DNA of 35,354 nucleotides from a virus: UHGV virus genome UHGV-0125936. One strand, given 5' to 3'. The notes beneath the pieces are model-generated. The model saw nothing but the letters and a program-made list of their open reading frames with translations, was not told the DNA's origin and ran no database searches. The position numbers and the translations under genes were made by a program. Below, piece after piece: positions 27,155 to 35,354 of this stretch. Numbering within the stretch: the stretch's first letter is position 1; the number at the start of each line of letters is the position of its first letter.

Positions 27155-28032
27155 GCTACAACTCCTGACGCGATGGCACGGAAACTTCCCCAGCCAAATG
27201 CCAGACGGTTGCGGCCACCATCTGTAACCCGGTCCACGATTCGCTCACCAATAGTCTCTTTCAGCTGGTCAAATGTGAGATTGCTGATCAGGATGGTTGG
27301 CAAAATGCTTTCGTACCGAGCATTGATAATTTCCTGCAGGATGGTCATTTCAGTCGGGCTGCCGAACTGAACACCAACTTCGTCGATAATCAGCAGATCC
27401 AGTGAAGCAAAGCGTTCAATGACGTCTTCCTCGGTCATTTCGGCATTGTGGCGCCATGTGCTTTTTACCGCTCGGGTGAGGCGCATGACATCGGTGATTT
27501 CCACATTCGCAAGGTGATCGCGGATGATGCTCTTTGCCATAGCCACTGCCAGGTGGTTTTTGCCGGTGCCGCAATTGCCGGTCATAACAAGCCCGGTACC
27601 GGCATTAAGTCGCTCAGGCCAGCTGCTGGCATAACGCTGACAAGCCGCGAGATTTTTGGCGGCATCCTGATTGATGGCCTGGTAGTTATCGAATTCACAT
27701 GCTTCGAACCGTCGTGCAATCCCGGCATTGTCTATCAGGTCGGCTACTCGTAATGCGCGCAGACTGGCTTCAATGTCAGCAAGTTCCGCTTTCACACACT
27801 CCGGGCACTGGGAGTGCTTAACATTTTCAACGCCACGATACGCTTTTCCAATGAGGGTAATACGCTCAAAATCGCCATGCTTCTCGCAGGTGGAGGTGCT
27901 GACTTCGCCTGACTCCCAGCTTCCCCATTGCCACGGTTTTTTATGCTCTACAGCGAAAGCCAGTTCTTCACTAAGCCCTTCACGTTTCGCCACCAGAGCT
28001 TCCCTTTCTTCACGTTGTTTGATACTCAGCAT
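27151..28032 (-). CDS. Helicase loader, DnaC/IstB-like AAA+ ATPase
   Basis: Walker A GNCGTGKNH and Walker B LLIIDEVG; overlaps DnaB-like start. Confidence 0.85.
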   Translation of the reverse strand: MLSIKQREEREALVAKREGLSEELAFAVEHKKPWQWGSWESGEVSTSTCEKHGDFERITLIGKAYRGVENVKHSQCPECVKAELADIEASLRALRVADLIDNAGIARRFEACEFDNYQAINQDAAKNLAACQRYASSWPERLNAGTGLVMTGNCGTGKNHLAVAMAKSIIRDHLANVEITDVMRLTRAVKSTWRHNAEMTEEDVIERFASLDLLIIDEVGVQFGSPTEMTILQEIINARYESILPTILISNLTFDQLKETIGERIVDRVTDGGRNRLAFGWGSFRAIASGVVA

Positions 28033-28047
28033 TGTGATTTCTCCTGC

Positions 28048-28857
28048 TTACCAGTTGCAGTCTGACTGGCCATAATCTTGCTCACTGAACCCGGACACCG
28101 GCAAACCTCCAGACCTTCCGTTTGTTGGGCCAGACGGTGCCTGCCATGCCTCTTCGAAATGCCGATCGGGACCAAAGAAAGTCGCCGCCTGTTTCACGTA
28201 CTGTGTTCCAGCACTACCTGTAGCACGGACATAACCGGCATAACGGTTTACGCCAGCCAGCATTGCCTCAGTGGTAACACCGTCTTTAATTCGAGCTTTC
28301 CAGGCTTTCCAGGCAGCGGCCTTGGAATTACCACCAGCACGTTTTGGGTATGCCTGCCATGCCTGCTCGAACTCGTTGGAATAGTTTCCCTTGGAAGAGC
28401 GATTTTCAGAATCGTTGTCAGATGAACCGTTATATTTAGGTTCTATGACTGATTCATTGACTGGTTCAAAAGAGTGACTGATTCTGGGTGCAGCTCCTGC
28501 ACTACCCCCTAGTGAATCTCCTGCACTATGGGGTGAATCTCCTGCACCAGGTAGTGAACTATTTGCACTACCCCCTAGTGAATCTCCTGCACTACTGAAA
28601 TCAAGGCGATAAACATTACTTGAGTTACCTTTTGGCCCCGGGCGAAGTTCTTTTTTTACCAAGCCGCATTCACACAAAGCATCAATGTGATTCATCACAG
28701 ATCGCTTACTGATTTCACACTGATCCGCTATGTGTTGATAGCTCGGCCAGCACTCACCGCGATCACTTGCGTTATCGGCCAACTTCAGGAGGACGAGCTT
28801 ACGAAGTGGATTACCTACCCTTACCTTCATTGCCTTAACCATCAATTCCATGCTCAT
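28048..28857 (-). CDS. Replication initiator (lambda O-like function) with internal ori iterons
   Basis: N-terminal winged-helix-like region (IADQCEISKRSVMNHIDAL); central repeated SAGDSLGGSA peptide encoded by DNA iterons; Trp/Lys-rich C-terminal domain. Confidence 0.65.
   Translation of the reverse strand: MSMELMVKAMKVRVGNPLRKLVLLKLADNASDRGECWPSYQHIADQCEISKRSVMNHIDALCECGLVKKELRPGPKGNSSNVYRLDFSSAGDSLGGSANSSLPGAGDSPHSAGDSLGGSAGAAPRISHSFEPVNESVIEPKYNGSSDNDSENRSSKGNYSNEFEQAWQAYPKRAGGNSKAAAWKAWKARIKDGVTTEAMLAGVNRYAGYVRATGSAGTQYVKQAATFFGPDRHFEEAWQAPSGPTNGRSGGLPVSGFSEQDYGQSDCNW
28498..28593. repeat. Origin iterons: 30-bp perfect direct repeat at 28498-28527 and 28564-28593 with a third 15-bp core copy between
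   Basis: Direct repeats read in sequence inside the initiator gene, as lambda ori lies within O. Confidence 0.6.
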
Positions 28858-28935
28858 GCGACACCCGCCAACACATTTTCGTTACTGAATTCAGCAAACA
28901 GCAAAGGCTCGCTGACGCAATAATGCCGTGACATG

Positions 28936-29148
28936 TCACACTCCTGAGGATGGGGGGAAAATATCCTCGATAGATAAGTTCTTACCGTTTTTTCTCAATA
29001 CTTCTACCAACTGATGGCATGTTTTAATATCAGGAGTTCGCCTTCCTGATTCGTAATGGCCAATAGAACTAATAGTCTGACCAATTTCCTCAGCCAGACC
29101 ACGCTGGGTAAGGTGAAGCGATAGTCTTAATTTTCTAAGATTGTTCAT
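28936..29148 (-). CDS. cro: Cro-like HTH repressor
   Basis: 70 aa; HTH LTQRGLAEEIGQTISSIGHYESG; divergent from cI; RBS GAGGAGG. Confidence 0.75.
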   Translation of the reverse strand: MNNLRKLRLSLHLTQRGLAEEIGQTISSIGHYESGRRTPDIKTCHQLVEVLRKNGKNLSIEDIFPPSSGV

Positions 29149-29256
29149 GGGTCCTCCTCATAGGAGAATCAAATGTACATTATGTAGTTTACATAATCAA
29201 ACAAATTGTACATATTGTGCATTGAGGAAAACTACACAAGGTGTATCATTTAGACC
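29149..29256. promoter_or_regulatory. OR-like region: divergent pR/pRM with TGTAC-core operators
   Basis: Palindromes aatgtacatt (29172-29181), tatgta-gtt-tacata (29181-29195), aattgtacat (29204-29213); candidate pR TTGATT/TACATT on - strand; candidate pRM TTGAGG/TATCAT ending about 7 nt before cI ATG. Confidence 0.55.
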
Positions 29257-29922
29257 ATGAAAAAACACTGGAACGAACTGGCTAAAACCAGACTGGCTGC
29301 GCTTGGAATGACCCAAGCAGAACTCTCTGAGAAGATGGGTGTAACTCAGGGTGCAATGGGCCATTGGCTTAACGGGCGAAGAAGTCCATCGCTAGCAGAC
29401 GTTGGCTCTATATTCCAGATCCTTGGAATATCTGGGGCTTCCATAAATCCAGACGGGACTTTCACTGTCTCGGAGGATCTAACCCTACCCCCTGTTAAAC
29501 AGCAGTATGAGTACCCCCTATTTACAACAGTGCAAGCTGGTCAGTTTGCTGATGTTGGAACGTTTACTGAGCGTGATGCTCTCCAGTGGATTCCTACAAC
29601 CAGAAAAGCTGGGCCGGACTCGTTTTGGCTTGAGGTAAGCGGGCATTCAATGACAGCCCCGCCAGGAACAAGACCAAGCTTCCCAGAAGGTATGTTGATT
29701 TTAGTTGATCCATCTGAGGATGTTGAACCAGGGGATTTTTGTGTTGCCGGCATACACAACGATTCAGAGGTTACTTTTAAGCGTTTCGTTCGAGAAGATG
29801 GTCAACCATGGCTGGAACCGCTAAACCCAAACCCTCGCTACCAAAGCATACCCTGTAATGAAAACTGCAGGATCATAGGCAAAGTAGTAAAAGCCCAATG
29901 GCCAGAAGATACTTTTGATTAA
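29257..29922 (+). CDS. cI: CI repressor (HTH + S24 LexA-like autopeptidase)
   Basis: N-terminal HTH ([23 protein letters not shown]); QAG candidate cleavage site; C-terminal GHSM...FKRF Ser-Lys dyad. Confidence 0.9.
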
Positions 29923-29939
29923 CCCTACCCACCCTTGAA

Positions 29940-29966
29940 GGCCGCAAATTATGCGGCCTTTTTTTT
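29940..29966 (+). terminator. Intrinsic terminator after cI
   Basis: 7-bp stem ggccgca/tgcggcc, loop aatta, followed by 8 T. Confidence 0.7.
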
Positions 29967-29982
29967 ATCTAGTGGTTACTAA

Positions 29983-30117
29983 AATTACATGATGTAATTT
30001 ATTTCCTCTTAATATTCATACACTTTGTACAAAAAGATGAAAATAATGTACGTTGCGTATAGACACAGGCATGTACGTTTTGTAGTATTCATTCATCGGC
30101 AAATAACGGAGCCTAAA
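29983..30117 (+). promoter_or_regulatory. OL/pL-like operator-promoter region
   Basis: 17-bp palindrome aattacat-g-atgtaatt (29983-29999), 10-bp palindrome tttgtacaaa (30024-30033), direct repeats atgtacgtt at 30046-30054 and 30071-30079; exact promoter hexamers not resolved. Confidence 0.5.
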
Positions 30118-30333
30118 ATGAATACTGAAACACTTAAATCAGAAAACGGTACGATTCATCAATTAGCTATGGATATTGATCGCGTCATTAACGCGCTTGA
30201 ATATGCTGAGTCAGATCCTGAGGTAGCATACAAACCCGCAGCACTCATTAAAATCTGTATCAATCAGCTCAAAAAAAATCTATCAGTTTTAAATAACGAT
30301 CTTGGGCACGATTGGCCGGAGAATAAGTCATGA
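30118..30333 (+). CDS. Hypothetical early protein
   Basis: 71 aa from MNTETLK with RBS GGAG; AT-rich. Confidence 0.45.
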   Translation: MNTETLKSENGTIHQLAMDIDRVINALEYAESDPEVAYKPAALIKICINQLKKNLSVLNNDLGHDWPENKS

Positions 30334-30548
30334 ATAATGAAATGGTTACTTTGAATAAAGAAGAAACTAGCAGAACAATTCTCGACTGGTCACATGATTT
30401 GCGTTGCTGCTCATGTTCATTATGGCTTCTTCTTGAGAATATGACGAGTATTGAAGAAGAACGAGAGCACGCACTTATTACTCTAGTAGTTCAAACACTA
30501 GATAAATTGAATAAAAGTGTCTCTGACTTCGACCCATATAAACTTTAA
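30330..30548 (+). CDS. Hypothetical early protein
   Basis: 72 aa; ATGA-overlap coupling with upstream gene. Confidence 0.45.
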   Translation: MNNEMVTLNKEETSRTILDWSHDLRCCSCSLWLLLENMTSIEEEREHALITLVVQTLDKLNKSVSDFDPYKL

Positions 30549-30619
30549 ACACTTAAGAATTTAATTAACGCCTTCACTTGTGTGGCTTCCTGCAACCTGA
30601 AAACAGGGTTAGGTTAAAA

Positions 30620-30736
30620 ATGACTTTCATCAAAGATAAAGCGGCATACAAAACAGCATGTCTTTTCTTTATGGTCTATGGCGACGAGTACCGCCATATA
30701 TCTGACCTTTTCATGCGTAAAGCTTACGGAGTCTGA
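30620..30736 (+). CDS. Hypothetical 38-aa micro-protein
   Basis: Short ORF MTFIKDKAAYKTACLFFMVYGDEYRHISDLFMRKAYGV ending 2 nt before next gene; weak RBS. Confidence 0.2.
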   Translation: MTFIKDKAAYKTACLFFMVYGDEYRHISDLFMRKAYGV

Positions 30737-30738
30737 AT

Positions 30739-30942
30739 ATGCTCAGTAGAGACAGTTCTCTAGAAACCGCAAAAAATACAGCAGATAACCTTTATCAATT
30801 AATGGAGTTAATCAACTCCAATATTATTGATATGGATATCGAGCAAATAATTTCCCTGTCTGGCCTCTGCCTTGACTTGTCGGCTCAGGTCTCAATGTGG
30901 ATGGATTCGGAGTTTGAACGTCGTGAAAAACAACGTAATTGA
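30739..30942 (+). CDS. Hypothetical early protein
   Basis: 67 aa; RBS GGAG. Confidence 0.4.
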   Translation: MLSRDSSLETAKNTADNLYQLMELINSNIIDMDIEQIISLSGLCLDLSAQVSMWMDSEFERREKQRN

Positions 30943-31333
30943 AACCTACCGCCGCCGAATTTTAAAGGCAGCGTTATTACGCCACCAGCGTAAAACGGGC
31001 AGTAACTGCCTTGTTATTAAGCTCAATAAAGGCGGTATTAACACGGTCGAGTTAACAGAGATTCTTCTCGATGGATTATTGAGAAAATTCGAAAGGCTTG
31101 CGATCAGTGAGTACGGGAATGTCGAAGGCGTAAAAGCTATCAAGGGAATTTACAGCAGCGCTGTTGATGTTAATGGCAGCGGTGAATTCCTTACGGATTG
31201 CGGGAAGGAATTAATCGACGAGCTCATTTCTGAGCTGGTTGAGTTCGTCAAAAAACAAAAAGTAGAGGCTCCGAAAACGGAGGGTCATGAAATGGGGGGA
31301 TCTGATGGCACTGACAGCGATACGAATTCCTGA
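30923..31333 (+). CDS. Hypothetical early protein (start uncertain: GTG 30923 or ATG 30872)
   Basis: 136-153 aa ORF; acidic C-terminus. Confidence 0.4.
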   Translation: MKNNVIETYRRRILKAALLRHQRKTGSNCLVIKLNKGGINTVELTEILLDGLLRKFERLAISEYGNVEGVKAIKGIYSSAVDVNGSGEFLTDCGKELIDELISELVEFVKKQKVEAPKTEGHEMGGSDGTDSDTNS

Positions 31334-31526
31334 GTGGGTTCACCTCAAAGCAGCACACGTTTTAAGCCAGTTCAGAGCAAGGCGCATTCACCCCTGCCGT
31401 ATGCACGGCTCCGGTAATTTGAGCCTCAAGGTTAACCACCGCTGGCGGCTACTCTCCCGCGATGGCGGCAAGAACTGGGAAGTAATGTCCCATGAGCGTT
31501 ATTCAAAAGTTAAGGATCGGAAATGA
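31305..31526 (+). CDS. Putative HigB/RelE-like toxin-fold protein
   Basis: 73 aa from MALTAIR (RBS GGGGGGA); C-terminal SGNLSLKVNHRWRLLSRDGGKNWEVMSHERY resembles recalled HigB core; stop overlaps next ATG. Confidence 0.35.
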   Translation: MALTAIRIPEWVHLKAAHVLSQFRARRIHPCRMHGSGNLSLKVNHRWRLLSRDGGKNWEVMSHERYSKVKDRK

Positions 31527-31936
31527 ACGATAAACGCACCGTAAGCACAATTGATCTGGCATTGCAGAAACACGATACGCCAGTTGGCCCGCTTTTCGTG
31601 GCAGTACGCCACGGACGCATTAAAAAATGCTTCACTCGAGACACAGCGATCCGCTATCTGGCGTTCTTCATGACCACCGAGGCTTTTGAGCGTTCAGGTT
31701 TTCCACAGCGTCACCCGCGGGTGCGTATTGATCGCGATGATATGGAGGTATGGCGAGACGGGGAAACAAAGGCGGAGTATCTGGCCGCCCACCAGCGTTG
31801 TATTCGCCGTCTGCGTCGTATCCTGGCGCGCAAGCGAGAAATGGAGAAATGGTGTGAAAAATGGGACGCAATGCACGAGCGCTACGTCAAAGAGGTGGAT
31901 GCATTGCAAGCCATCAAACCAGCAGGAGTGTATTGA
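31523..31936 (+). CDS. Hypothetical protein, translationally coupled to upstream toxin-like gene
   Basis: 137 aa basic protein; ATGA overlap with upstream gene. Confidence 0.45.
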   Translation: MNDKRTVSTIDLALQKHDTPVGPLFVAVRHGRIKKCFTRDTAIRYLAFFMTTEAFERSGFPQRHPRVRIDRDDMEVWRDGETKAEYLAAHQRCIRRLRRILARKREMEKWCEKWDAMHERYVKEVDALQAIKPAGVY

Positions 31937-32514
31937 TGGTTGATTCAACGTTTAACCCAGAGCCGACATCAACCGGCATCCGTTTTGGTAACCGCGTTAT
32001 TGGCTATTCCGTTGCGGTTCGCCAGCTCGACAACGGTAATTATGACAAACGAATTCCGGATGGATTAGATCTGCTGGCTTGCATCATGGAAGCGATTGAA
32101 AGCGGCTGGTTTACCCCGGGCATCGAGAAAGAAATCATCATTTGGCGCTGGATGCTGGTTGCCGTCTTCATTGCCGAGGAGCAGGAAAAGAACGGCACGG
32201 TTGAGGTTGCCAACGATTCTGGAGGGTTTGACACCGCAGTTATCTACTCCGGACAGCACGGTTCAATCAGTGTTTATCCTGCGCCAGAGCGGTTCGCACT
32301 CGCAAGCCATGTGGAAGGGTTAGCCATTGAGAAATACGGTCAGGAACTCGGCCAGCAGATGGCGCTGCGCATGTACCGGGACATGTTAGATACGGACGCT
32401 GAGAACGGGCTTCAACTCTCAAAAATGGGCCGGGAAGGTTTTAATCTCCTTCATGACAGCTTCATTGAACAGATTCAGAAAGAAGGTATGCCTGACAAGC
32501 CGGTTATGCACTGA
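31936..32514 (+). CDS. Hypothetical protein
   Basis: 192 aa from MVDSTFN (RBS AGGAG; 1-nt overlap with upstream stop). Confidence 0.45.
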   Translation: MVDSTFNPEPTSTGIRFGNRVIGYSVAVRQLDNGNYDKRIPDGLDLLACIMEAIESGWFTPGIEKEIIIWRWMLVAVFIAEEQEKNGTVEVANDSGGFDTAVIYSGQHGSISVYPAPERFALASHVEGLAIEKYGQELGQQMALRMYRDMLDTDAENGLQLSKMGREGFNLLHDSFIEQIQKEGMPDKPVMH

Positions 32515-32525
32515 GGAGGACGAAA

Positions 32526-33269
32526 ATGAACACAGTAACGATCAATAACAAACAGCTGCCGGCAGTCGAATATCGCGGTCAGCGCGTTGTGACATTCGCA
32601 ATGATTGACGAAGCTCACCAACGACCAGATGGAACAGCAGGACGTAATTTTCGTGAAAACAGGAACTACTTTGTCGAGGGGGTAGATTACGTTGAATTAG
32701 GTTCCGACGCTATACGCCGGGACCTTCCGGAAGGTGTGTTTTCTAAGTTTGCGCCCTCTGGAATTGTGCTTTTCGAATCTGGATATCTGATGGTGGCGAA
32801 GTCACTCACGGACGATCTGGCCTGGCAGGTTCAGCGTGAGCTGGTTAACAGCTATTTTCGCACTCGCGCACCGCTGACGGAAATCGAGATGATCGCCGTA
32901 ATGGCCGCCGATGCCGTTCGCCAGCAGAAGCGCCTGAATCATGTTGAAGAGCAGATCGAAACAGTCACAGAAGCTGTGGAGAACATCAAACGCGGGACCA
33001 TGCGCGCCGGATATGTTGGTTACCGCCAGGTGGTAGCTAAAAGCGGAATGAGTGACGCCAAGTGCCGGAATTTGGTCAATGCCTACCGCATCCCGACAGA
33101 CACGCACGAATTTATGACTCCAGACGGGCTTTTGTCACGTAGGGCCATCGTCGAACTGGAGCCGTTTATGGCCGCGTTTCGCCAGATGATGTCAGAAGCT
33201 GAGCCGCGCGGCACCCGCTGGTATCACCCTAAAATGGGCTTGTTCCAAGCGATCGGCTGGGAGGGGTAA
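32526..33269 (+). CDS. ORF6N-domain protein (antirepressor-like / DNA-binding)
   Basis: N-terminal VVTFAMIDEAHQRPDGTAGRNFRENRNYFVEGVDY resembles ORF6N/KilA-N-type domain by eye. Confidence 0.5.
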   Translation: MNTVTINNKQLPAVEYRGQRVVTFAMIDEAHQRPDGTAGRNFRENRNYFVEGVDYVELGSDAIRRDLPEGVFSKFAPSGIVLFESGYLMVAKSLTDDLAWQVQRELVNSYFRTRAPLTEIEMIAVMAADAVRQQKRLNHVEEQIETVTEAVENIKRGTMRAGYVGYRQVVAKSGMSDAKCRNLVNAYRIPTDTHEFMTPDGLLSRRAIVELEPFMAAFRQMMSEAEPRGTRWYHPKMGLFQAIGWEG

Positions 33270-33271
33270 CG

Positions 33272-33697
33272 GTGAAAAATAATGAAATATGGAATCCGGC
33301 TGGCTCTGTTGAGCTGGCCCACCAGCAAGCTCTGACATGGGTATCTGATGCCTACTTATTCCATCTGGTGAGTCTGCATCGTCGCCCGGTGTACCGCCAC
33401 CAGTACGGCGACATTTCGCTTAATCAGCCAGCATTGCAGGCATTCATCGATTCGTATCTGGAAGACAAGGGCTGGGATATGGAAAAACGCCGTGCCCATT
33501 ACATCAACATTCTGGACCTCATCAAATATATGCATCGCAGCAATTCGGACTTCATCGACTGGGGAACCGTGCCATCACTAACGCCCCGCGGGTTGCGCTG
33601 GATGAACGCCTGTTTCTCTAGGTTGGGAGACATGGTCAACAGCTGCGGTGGTTGGGAAAACTGCGTCGAGAAAAAAATGGAGGGTACTAATGCGTGA
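33272..33697 (+). CDS. Hypothetical protein
   Basis: 141 aa ORF upstream of excisionase. Confidence 0.45.
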   Translation: MKNNEIWNPAGSVELAHQQALTWVSDAYLFHLVSLHRRPVYRHQYGDISLNQPALQAFIDSYLEDKGWDMEKRRAHYINILDLIKYMHRSNSDFIDWGTVPSLTPRGLRWMNACFSRLGDMVNSCGGWENCVEKKMEGTNA

Positions 33698-33935
33698 TAC
33701 TGCCGATGTCGTTTTGCTGGTACCGAATGACTGGGTTAGCGAAAAGGTTCTGATTGCGGTTACCGGGCTCAAGCCCGGAACCATCCTCCGGGCCAGAAAA
33801 GAATGCTGGCTGGTTGGGCGGGAATATGTGCATGTTTCACCTGACGGAAATCCGAAACCTTCCAGCGAGTGCATGTATAACCGTAAAGCGGTCGATGCGT
33901 GGGTGGCCTCAATGAAAAACAAACAGCCTGGGTGA
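33690..33935 (+). CDS. xis: Putative excisionase
   Basis: 81 aa small basic protein immediately upstream of integrase; RBS GGAGGG; start at MRDTADV rather than ORF-track 33648. Confidence 0.5.
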   Translation: MRDTADVVLLVPNDWVSEKVLIAVTGLKPGTILRARKECWLVGREYVHVSPDGNPKPSSECMYNRKAVDAWVASMKNKQPG

Positions 33936-33990
33936 TCTGAGGCCATGAAAAAGGTAATCTCATATCGCTCTTGGGCGTCTGGAGGAATCA

Positions 33991-35304
33991 ATGGATAAAG
34001 TTACATATCCAACAGGCGTCGAAAACCACGGTGGCACATTGCGCATCTGGTTTAATTTCAAAGGTAAGCGTGTCAGGGAGAGCCTCGGTGTCCCTGACAC
34101 CGCTAAGAACAGGAAGATCGCCGGGGAACTGCGGACATCGGTATGCTTTGCCATCAGAACAGGCACATTTGAGTACGCGGCACAGTTTCCGGACTCCCCT
34201 AACCTCAAGACTTTTGGGGTGGGTAAGAAAGAAATTACAGTGTCAGAGCTTGCCGAAAAGTGGCTGGATCTGAAGAGAATGGAAATCTGCGCGAACGCAC
34301 TCAACCGTTATGAGTCGGTCACAAGGAATATGGTGCCAAGGATCGGGGGGAATCGGCTGGTATCGGCGGTGACTAAAGAGGAATTACTGTATATCAGGAA
34401 AGATTTACTGATCGGTCACCAGATGCCAATGAAGGGGAAGGTCCCGGCAAAAGGACGAAGTGTTGTCACCGTAAATTATTACATGACAACTATTGCCGGA
34501 ATGTTTCAGTTTGCCGCAGATCACGGTTATTTAGAGGTGAACCCATTCGACGGGATAAAGCCTCTTAAAAAAGCCAGGGCAGAGCCAGATCCGCTAACTC
34601 GTGACGAATTTATTCGCCTGATTGATGCATGCCGGCATCAGCAGACGAAAAACCTGTGGTCACTCGCATTATACACAGGGGTCCGTCATGGGGAGCTGAC
34701 CTCCCTGGCCTGGGAGGATATCGATCTTGAAGCTGGAACAATAACAATCAGGCGTAATTATACAAAACTGGGTGAATTCACTCTACCGAAAACTGAGGCC
34801 AGTACCAACAGAGTGATACACCTCATTCAGCCTGCGATCAGCGTCCTGAGGAATCAGGCGGAAATGACCAGGCTTGGAAAAAAGCATCAGATCGATGTTC
34901 AGCTGCGCGAATACGGCAGAACTGAGAGCCACGAGTGTACATTTGTTTTCAACCCTCAACTGGTCAGAAGATGTCAGCAGGTGGGGATCATCTACAAAGT
35001 CGACTCGATAGGTGATTTATGGGACGCAGCGATGAAGCGAGCAGGGATAAGGCACAGGAAAGCATATCAGTCGCGTCACACGTATGCATGCTGGTCACTG
35101 TCAGCTGGCGCTAACCCCAGCTTCATTGCCAGTCAGATGGGCCATGCGAGCGCCCAGATGGTCTTCAACGTATATGGTGCGTGGATGGCAGACAGCAGTA
35201 GTGAGCAGATCGCAATGCTGAATCAGAGGCTCGCGGATTTTGCCCCACAGATGCCCCAAAGCATACCTAGCGGCACCAGAGCATTATTGAAATCAGTAAG
35301 TTAG
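33991..35304 (+). CDS. int: Tyrosine integrase
   Basis: 437 aa; C-terminal catalytic region with R...HxxR...Y pattern (RHTYACWSL, GHASAQMVFNVYGAW); terminal position. Confidence 0.9.
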   Translation: MDKVTYPTGVENHGGTLRIWFNFKGKRVRESLGVPDTAKNRKIAGELRTSVCFAIRTGTFEYAAQFPDSPNLKTFGVGKKEITVSELAEKWLDLKRMEICANALNRYESVTRNMVPRIGGNRLVSAVTKEELLYIRKDLLIGHQMPMKGKVPAKGRSVVTVNYYMTTIAGMFQFAADHGYLEVNPFDGIKPLKKARAEPDPLTRDEFIRLIDACRHQQTKNLWSLALYTGVRHGELTSLAWEDIDLEAGTITIRRNYTKLGEFTLPKTEASTNRVIHLIQPAISVLRNQAEMTRLGKKHQIDVQLREYGRTESHECTFVFNPQLVRRCQQVGIIYKVDSIGDLWDAAMKRAGIRHRKAYQSRHTYACWSLSAGANPSFIASQMGHASAQMVFNVYGAWMADSSSEQIAMLNQRLADFAPQMPQSIPSGTRALLKSVS

Positions 35305-35354
35305 TTAATAACGCCCGACATGTTAACTGCGTGGAGGGCAATACCACGCTGTAC

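Follow-up and report, generated by a model that had tools for sequence, protein, structure and literature searches.

The virus genome stretch UHGV-0125936, called the window below (35,354 nucleotides in full), belongs to a lambdoid, HK97-like temperate phage or prophage of Enterobacteriaceae. Among the small plus-strand genes that follow its CI-like repressor gene is one for a 73-amino-acid (aa) protein, referred to here as the toxin-like gene, which an earlier note had proposed to encode a HigB/RelE-like toxin coupled to the 137-aa protein encoded downstream (here D137). We found that the 73-aa protein is a miniature member of the RelE/HigB/YoeB/ParE toxin superfamily, an assignment that the data support, and that its gene occurs independently of both neighbors, is under purifying selection, and lies downstream of a promoter-like site that carries motifs also present in the cI/cro region. 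The explanation that we favor, with the scales about evenly balanced, is that the gene is an orphan, repressor-gated mini-toxin cassette of the RelE/HigB type that acts in the lytic phase.

Fold and family of the 73-aa protein

The 73-aa protein matched the Pfam family PF24732 ("ParE-like toxin domain") over the full profile (positions 1 to 67 of 67) with a score of 72.5 bits (curated gathering cut-off, 24.4; E value, 2.9e-20), and the same family was matched by 46 of 46 homologues. The AF2 model based on these 46 homologues was confident (pLDDT, 89.7; pTM, 0.76) and consists of a strand (residues 2 to 5), a helix (residues 10 to 24), three further strands (residues 39 to 42, 47 to 51, and 57 to 62), and a final helix (residues 63 to 71). 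The RelE/ParE fold, in which an N-terminal strand and helix pack against an antiparallel sheet of three to four strands, is present in the model, and the fold suggested by the earlier note holds. When the model was compared with the Protein Data Bank (PDB) using Foldseek, the top ranks were taken by YafQ, YoeB, GraT, RelK, and HigB, with weak similarities (E values of 0.055 and above; TM scores of approximately 0.5 to 0.58). The superfamily membership is supported because the PF24732 match, the confident model, and this weak ranking agree.

The gene family is already catalogued. Near-identical proteins are present in RefSeq, where the PGAP name for the homologues is "ParE family toxin-like protein," and the 73-aa protein also matched phrog_1525, a family of unknown function. 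A Klebsiella phage record labels a truncated homologue "mRNA interferase HigB," and two Serratia phages label their homologues "HigB-like"; the corresponding Serratia phage paper goes no further than this label. When 1.84 billion representative proteins were searched exhaustively with a profile, only 114 clusters were retrieved, nearly all of 60 to 100 aa, which indicates a small, compact family. Sequence searches of the PDB with the single protein and with the family profile gave nothing related; the matches obtained were BNR/Asp-box-like noise caused by the pattern SxDxGxxW. No NCBIfam model matched the 73-aa protein or D137, and no PADLOC-DB defense model matched the 73-aa protein. The literature on orphan toxins in general yielded reviews only.

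Conserved residues and the RNase question

Residue conservation was assessed in 56 diverse members of the PF24732 family with a mean identity of 29%. Constant or nearly constant positions were A16 and R48 (both 56/56), Y66 (52/56, with Phe in three further members), and H63 (51/56), and P9 (50/56) and W58 (49/56) were also well kept. The family was aligned by hhalign with single HigB, YoeB, and RelE sequences; the HigB numbering agrees with that in PMC5027501. Although the alignments were topologically consistent, we used them for residue mapping only, because the probabilities were just 1 to 16%. When the alignment with Proteus vulgaris HigB was continued gap-free to the C termini, R48 fell on R73, Y66 on Y91, and E64 on E89. 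The catalytic residues of HigB are His54, Arg73, Asp90, Tyr91, and His92, of which Arg73 touches the scissile phosphate and Tyr91 lies closest to the leaving group (PMC5027501).

The family has its own His63, three residues ahead of Tyr66, and this pair resembles His83/Tyr84 of YoeB (a pair also cited in PMC5027501). Because of the conserved Arg, His, and Tyr residues and the pI of 11.5, the 73-aa protein resembles, as far as its sequence can tell, a ribosome-dependent RNase more than it does a gyrase poison of the ParE type. The earlier note had seen a resemblance to the HigB core in a peptide that it took for the end of the protein; this peptide spans residues 36 to 66 and is followed by seven more residues. 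A direct pairwise comparison with HigB gave 9 identities in 41 positions, a number reached by 28 of 300 shuffled sequences and thus not significant on its own, yet the resemblance pointed in the right direction.

Independence from the neighboring genes

We compared 35 loci (one genome per species), 80 IMG/VR loci, four annotated records, and four Salmonella loci, and mapped neighboring genes by tblastn. Of the 35 species-representative genomes, 16 have D137 after the toxin-like gene and 19 lack it. Among the records of the phage collection, 65 contain the toxin-like gene and only 20 contain D137, and both were seen in 13; D137 is thus missing from at least 45 of the 65. Conversely, D137 is common without the toxin-like gene (280 clusters versus 83), and in Salmonella a D137 homologue is present on more than 1,000 contigs that have no toxin-like gene. 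The coupled partner or antitoxin that the earlier note had suspected in D137 is therefore not supported, and D137 is best taken as simply the next cassette. The overlap that the note had described is real, as the ATG of D137 overlaps the TGA of the upstream gene (31523/31526); it is uninformative about partnership, because start/stop overlaps recur along the operon (30330/30333, 31305/31333, 31523/31526, and 31936).

The upstream side was equally variable. In 21 of the 35 genomes the toxin-like gene is directly preceded by a member of an open reading frame (ORF) family that we call U, which encodes acidic proteins of 65 to 90 aa (pI 4.5 to 4.8) and shares 29 nt or 4 nt with the start of the toxin-like gene; in the other 14 it is absent. 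Alignment with phage CharmingMan shows that approximately 205 bp encoding U are missing from the window, exactly between GTCAAAAAACAAAAA and the ribosome-binding site of the toxin-like gene. The place of U is taken by the phrog_1737 ORF, whose 3' end overlaps the first 29 nt of the toxin-like gene. In size, charge, and position, U resembles a classical antitoxin more closely than D137 does; it has no Pfam or antitoxin-family match and is dispensable, being absent here and in other loci.

All combinations of these genes were observed. U, the toxin-like gene, and D137 occur together in, for example, CharmingMan and Klebsiella phages; U and the toxin-like gene occur alone in Escherichia coli M8 and DX6 and in loci L009 to L015; and the toxin-like gene is accompanied by D137 only in the window, in L005, L006, L016, L017, and L020, and in 73 of the 80 close IMG/VR relatives, which makes the U-less arrangement the commonest among close relatives. 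Neither gene is present in 9 of the 35 genomes, namely, L023, L025, and the seven distant loci L033 to L039; in L023 and L025 all conserved residues of the toxin-like protein are intact. In Salmonella prophages, the toxin-like gene is missing and D137 comes immediately after U. Among the close loci, the presence of U and D137 fits independent assortment (about 2 loci with neither expected, 2 seen). The co-conserved adjacent pair that marks type II toxin-antitoxin systems was thus found neither with D137 nor with U. The phrog_1737 ORF, the most regular upstream neighbor in the close loci, was also considered as a constant partner and rejected; it is present in Salmonella without the toxin-like gene, is separated from it in L026, and is absent in distant contexts.

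The median ratio of nonsynonymous to synonymous substitution rates (dN/dS) was 0.107 for the toxin-like ORF and 0.124 for the D137 ORF, and this strong purifying selection indicates that both are real genes. An alternative 79-aa ORF beginning at an in-frame ATG at 31287 was rejected, since homologues keep the start at 31305.

Regulation of the early-left operon

A promoter-like site, TAGACA-17-TAGTAT, lies at 30060-30088, approximately 100 bp past the strong cI terminator. The motif ATGTACRTTNNGTA is present at 30046-30059 and 30071-30084, over the -35 and -10 elements of this site, and a third copy is located at 29173-29186 in the cI/cro intergenic region; there is no other copy in the window. 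Three copies compare with 0.19 expected, and none of 100 shuffled sequences reached three. This layout matches the classical OR/OL operator arrangement, and the phage repressor probably uses the motifs as its OR and OL operators.

Promoter-like sites in the region as a whole were not above the level of shuffled sequences (7 found, 7.8 expected). A consensus scan, which cannot prove absence, detected no convincing promoter or terminator between 30060-30088 and the toxin-like gene, the lone candidate upstream of the gene being a weak 9/12 match at 31052-31079. The nearest well-placed putative promoter is the pL-like site at 30060-30088, and we infer that the toxin-like gene belongs to a CI-repressed early-left operon. 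An Rfam scan of 28000-35354 detected no RNA family, and an RNA antitoxin of a known family is thus not supported.

Proposed function

In the explanation that we favor, the toxin-like gene would be one of several independently shuffled small cassettes and would have no dedicated antitoxin in this phage. In the lysogen, CI would repress the early-left promoter and the gene would be silent, and for this reason a protein with a toxin fold could do without a dedicated antitoxin. Upon induction or infection, the basic protein may bind to the ribosomal A site and cleave mRNA as HigB and YoeB do, relying on Arg48, which is invariant, and on His63 and Tyr66, which nearly are. The outcome would be a contribution to host shut-off or an interference with the gene expression of the host or of a competitor.

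Several observations weigh against this explanation. (i) No match to the Pfam profiles of HigB (PF05015), RelE, or ParE (PF05016) was obtained up to an E value of 10 in 46 members. The profile search against RelE/HigB families that the earlier note had suggested thus gave a divided answer: the toxin superfamily was recovered through PF24732, and membership in HigB or ParE proper is not supported. (ii) The 73-aa protein has one N-terminal helix, as compared to two in canonical toxins. (iii) In hhalign comparisons of the family with single sequences, the probabilities were 16% for HigB, 5.5% for YoeB, and 1.2% for RelE. (iv) The counterparts of HigB His54, Asp90, and His92 are variable in the family, and catalysis is for this reason a putative activity. 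(v) By its Pfam label, "ParE-like," the family would be expected to poison gyrase and not to cleave RNA. (vi) The literature contained no paper that mentions PF24732 or "ParE family toxin-like protein." (vii) The evidence for CI repression consists of motif positions, and there may be an RNA antitoxin or an antitoxin encoded elsewhere.

A broader and more tentative proposal, which we consider possible but rather doubtful, is that PF24732 proteins are antitoxin-free, ribosome-dependent RNases of the RelE/HigB type used offensively by phages and integrative elements. The role of the antitoxin would fall to transcriptional repression of the element's early operon, and release of the enzyme only at induction, infection, or transfer would shut off host translation or disarm host defenses.

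Alternative explanations

The pairing suggested by the earlier note, in which the 73-aa toxin and the coupled D137 would form a type II toxin-antitoxin or abortive-infection pair in HigBA order with an antitoxin that lacks a helix-turn-helix (HTH), is very improbable. The note was correct that D137 has no obvious HTH, as none was found by Pfam or in its AF2 model. Against the pairing, the toxin-like gene often occurs without D137, and D137 without the toxin-like gene, in the counts given above; both proteins are basic (pI 9.8 for D137); D137 has no other Pfam domain and no PADLOC or Pfam antitoxin match, the comparison with PADLOC-DB giving nothing beyond a chance-level Cas5a match (E value, 0.038); overlapping stops and starts are general in the operon; and the genes lie inside a repressor-controlled lytic operon, with no promoter of their own detected. 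A better candidate for a lost partner is U, such that the ancestral module would have been U plus the toxin-like gene, in ParD-ParE order, and the window would contain a toxin-only remnant tolerated under operon repression. The antitoxin-like properties of U and its immediate upstream position in 21 of 35 genomes, as well as the absence of some 205 bp at exactly this position in the window and its close relatives, speak for this explanation. We nevertheless consider it rather unlikely, since U-less loci are common, including L023 and L025 besides those that carry D137, and retain intact residues and a low dN/dS; U is found without the toxin-like gene in Salmonella and matches no antitoxin family; its assortment with D137 appears independent; and distant members have other upstream genes (ParB-like, DUF2857, and others).

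Another explanation leaves the fold in place but removes the toxicity: the protein would not inhibit growth and would act as a ribosome- or RNA-binding regulator or as an anti-defense decoy for host toxin-antitoxin systems. The toxin-like gene has no constant partner and is spread over diverse phages and island-like elements, the fold is cut down to a single N-terminal helix, and the HigB general-base position is not conserved, all of which would suit such a role. Set against this are Arg48, His63, and Tyr66, which are strictly conserved and match RNase active-site residues of HigB and YoeB in position, and the high pI, which is typical of ribosome-dependent toxins, and we consider a nontoxic role unlikely. 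That the protein is a true ParE-type poison of DNA gyrase and not an RNase, as the Pfam label might suggest, is quite improbable given the RNase-like residues.

Relation to known systems

HigB of P. vulgaris plasmid Rts1, a ribosome-dependent mRNA endonuclease (PDB 4px8 and 4mct), has 92 aa and two N-terminal helices, whereas the protein studied here has 73 aa and one. Besides the missing PF05015 match and the missing equivalents of His54, Asp90, and His92, the toxin-like gene has no downstream antitoxin of the HigA type with an XRE-HTH domain, and it is embedded in a phage early operon and not autonomous. In comparison with the toxins of YefM-YoeB, DinJ-YafQ, and RelBE, the 73-aa protein is smaller, shows no significant profile similarity (16% or less), and is encoded without an upstream antitoxin of the Phd/YefM or RelB type. 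It differs from ParE toxins, including that of PaaA2-ParE2 from an E. coli O157:H7 prophage (PDB 5czf), in that there is no PF05016 match and no ParD- or PaaA2-like antitoxin, the upstream ORFs being phrog_1737 or, in relatives, U, neither of which matches an antitoxin family, and in that its conserved residues look RNase-like.

PaaR2-PaaA2-ParE2 was reportedly described by Hallez and coworkers in 2010 as an autonomous three-gene module, whereas the toxin-like gene has no fixed partners. An analogy in terms of regulation is offered by lambda kil and other toxic accessory genes of the pL operon of lambdoid phages. Kil targets FtsZ, and CI keeps the toxic early-left genes silent. Like kil, the toxin-like gene would be a small, potentially host-harmful gene in a repressor-controlled early-left operon that needs no antitoxin; the fold and target of Kil are unrelated to the RelE/ParE fold found here.

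Genomic setting

The minus strand of the window encodes a Cro-like HTH protein, DnaD-like, DnaC-like, and DnaB replication proteins, a Q antiterminator, and an HK97-type capsid protein, and the plus strand carries the CI-like repressor gene followed by small genes up to an Arm-type tyrosine integrase gene (Table 1). The cassette order of the region is phrog_1737, U, toxin-like gene, D137, phrog_1515, and ORF6N antirepressor; the presence of phrog_1515 varies independently across loci.

Table 1. Features of the early-left region of the window, with examples of U in related loci
Feature	Position	Strand	Basis or remark
CI-like repressor (HTH_3 + Peptidase_S24)	29257-29922	+	Pfam
Intrinsic terminator after cI	29937-29961		10-bp stem and T-run
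pL-like putative early-left promoter, TAGACA-17-TAGTAT, with two overlapping operator-like motifs	30046-30088	+	Promoter scan
phrog_1737-family ORF	30923-31333	+	Probable GTG start near 30923; phrog_1737, E value 2.5e-53
Junction where relatives hold the acidic U ORF	31258-31304	+	Shine-Dalgarno-like G-run of the toxin-like gene kept
Toxin-like gene (73 aa, pI 11.5)	31305-31526	+	PF24732; phrog_1525
D137 (basic, 137 aa)	31523-31936	+	phrog_1886; independent adjacent cassette
192-aa protein	31936-32514	+	phrog_1515; next variable cassette in the same operon
ORF6N-domain antirepressor-like gene	32526-33269		phrog_1726; within the early-left operon
141-aa ORF after the ORF6N gene	33272-33697		PriA-like winged-helix match below threshold (22.3 bits; cut-off, 27)
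Arm-type tyrosine integrase	33991-35304	+	End of the plus-strand run
U in related loci (locus coordinates)	L001, 3326-3595; L002, 2817-3029; L040, 2807-3004		Examples

The G-run before the toxin-like start (31286-31297) consists of six G residues in the window; in the Pseudocitrobacter locus L005, which is otherwise nearly identical, it has five. This difference shifts the frame of the tail of the upstream ORF, which is therefore probably not functionally important. Residues 11 to 76 of D137, its N-terminal sheet and helix, share approximately 40% identity with Salmonella phages S107, S135, S137, and SPN3UB (MH370364, MH370382, MH370383, and JQ288021), where the annotated features at the matches are Rha, antirepressor, or transcriptional regulator; this similarity hints at a regulatory or DNA-binding module in the N-terminal part.

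Sequences with DNA identities of up to approximately 89 to 95% to the region are filed under nonenterobacterial hosts, namely, L031 (Chryseobacterium sp. 18061), L035 (a Cereibacter sphaeroides metagenome-assembled genome), MH178096, and OM284015. DNA identity was 88.8% over 83% of the query for Aeromonas phage AsXd-1 (MH178096) and 95.5% over a short stretch for Elizabethkingia phage EKP1 (OM284015). These host labels probably reflect contamination or host misassignment and not the real host range.

Distribution in distant contexts

More distant PF24732 members have different surroundings. In Serratia and Brenneria phages the gene follows a ParB-like gene, and in prophages of these genera (L033, 3165-4219; L034, 1842-2943; L125, 1686-2719) it is translationally coupled to this upstream HTH_ParB gene; the ORFs downstream are unrelated (an uncharacterized one of 291 aa in L033 and one of 168 aa in L034). 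In islands of Pectobacterium, Brenneria, Proteus, and Providencia that resemble integrative conjugative elements (ICEs), the gene follows DUF2857, and members of 90 to 105 aa are flanked by the DUF2857 gene on one side and a large conserved ORF (approximately 430 aa) on the other (L036, 3905-4177; L037, 3830-4147; L038 and L039, 3821-4105). The surroundings of L036 to L039 look like the backbones of ICEs or genomic islands, and the family is for this reason not confined to phages. Members were also found in Sortsnevirus-type and other phages. In the former (L124, 2737-3033; L035, 1362-1649), the gene downstream of the toxin-like gene encodes a conserved acidic protein of approximately 95 to 98 aa with 50% identity between the loci, which could be a lineage-specific partner or reflect shared gene order.

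Implications

The finding is of modest interest in that the gene is already catalogued in Pfam and by PGAP and its function is a predicted one. It carries a caution for annotation: an ATGA overlap together with a toxin-like motif is insufficient for calling a toxin-antitoxin system, as gene overlap is the norm in tight phage operons, and it is the comparison of many loci that reveals whether two genes truly travel together. An active RNase with no cognate antitoxin, should the protein prove to be one, would represent a clean case of a mobile element that controls a toxin purely by repressor-gated transcription, and it would provide a RelE-type scaffold of approximately 70 aa for defining the minimal requirements of ribosome-dependent mRNA cleavage. 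If, in addition, the offensive use of the family proposed above is true, PF24732 would exemplify a toxin fold that has left the addiction module and come to serve as a weapon of the lytic phase.
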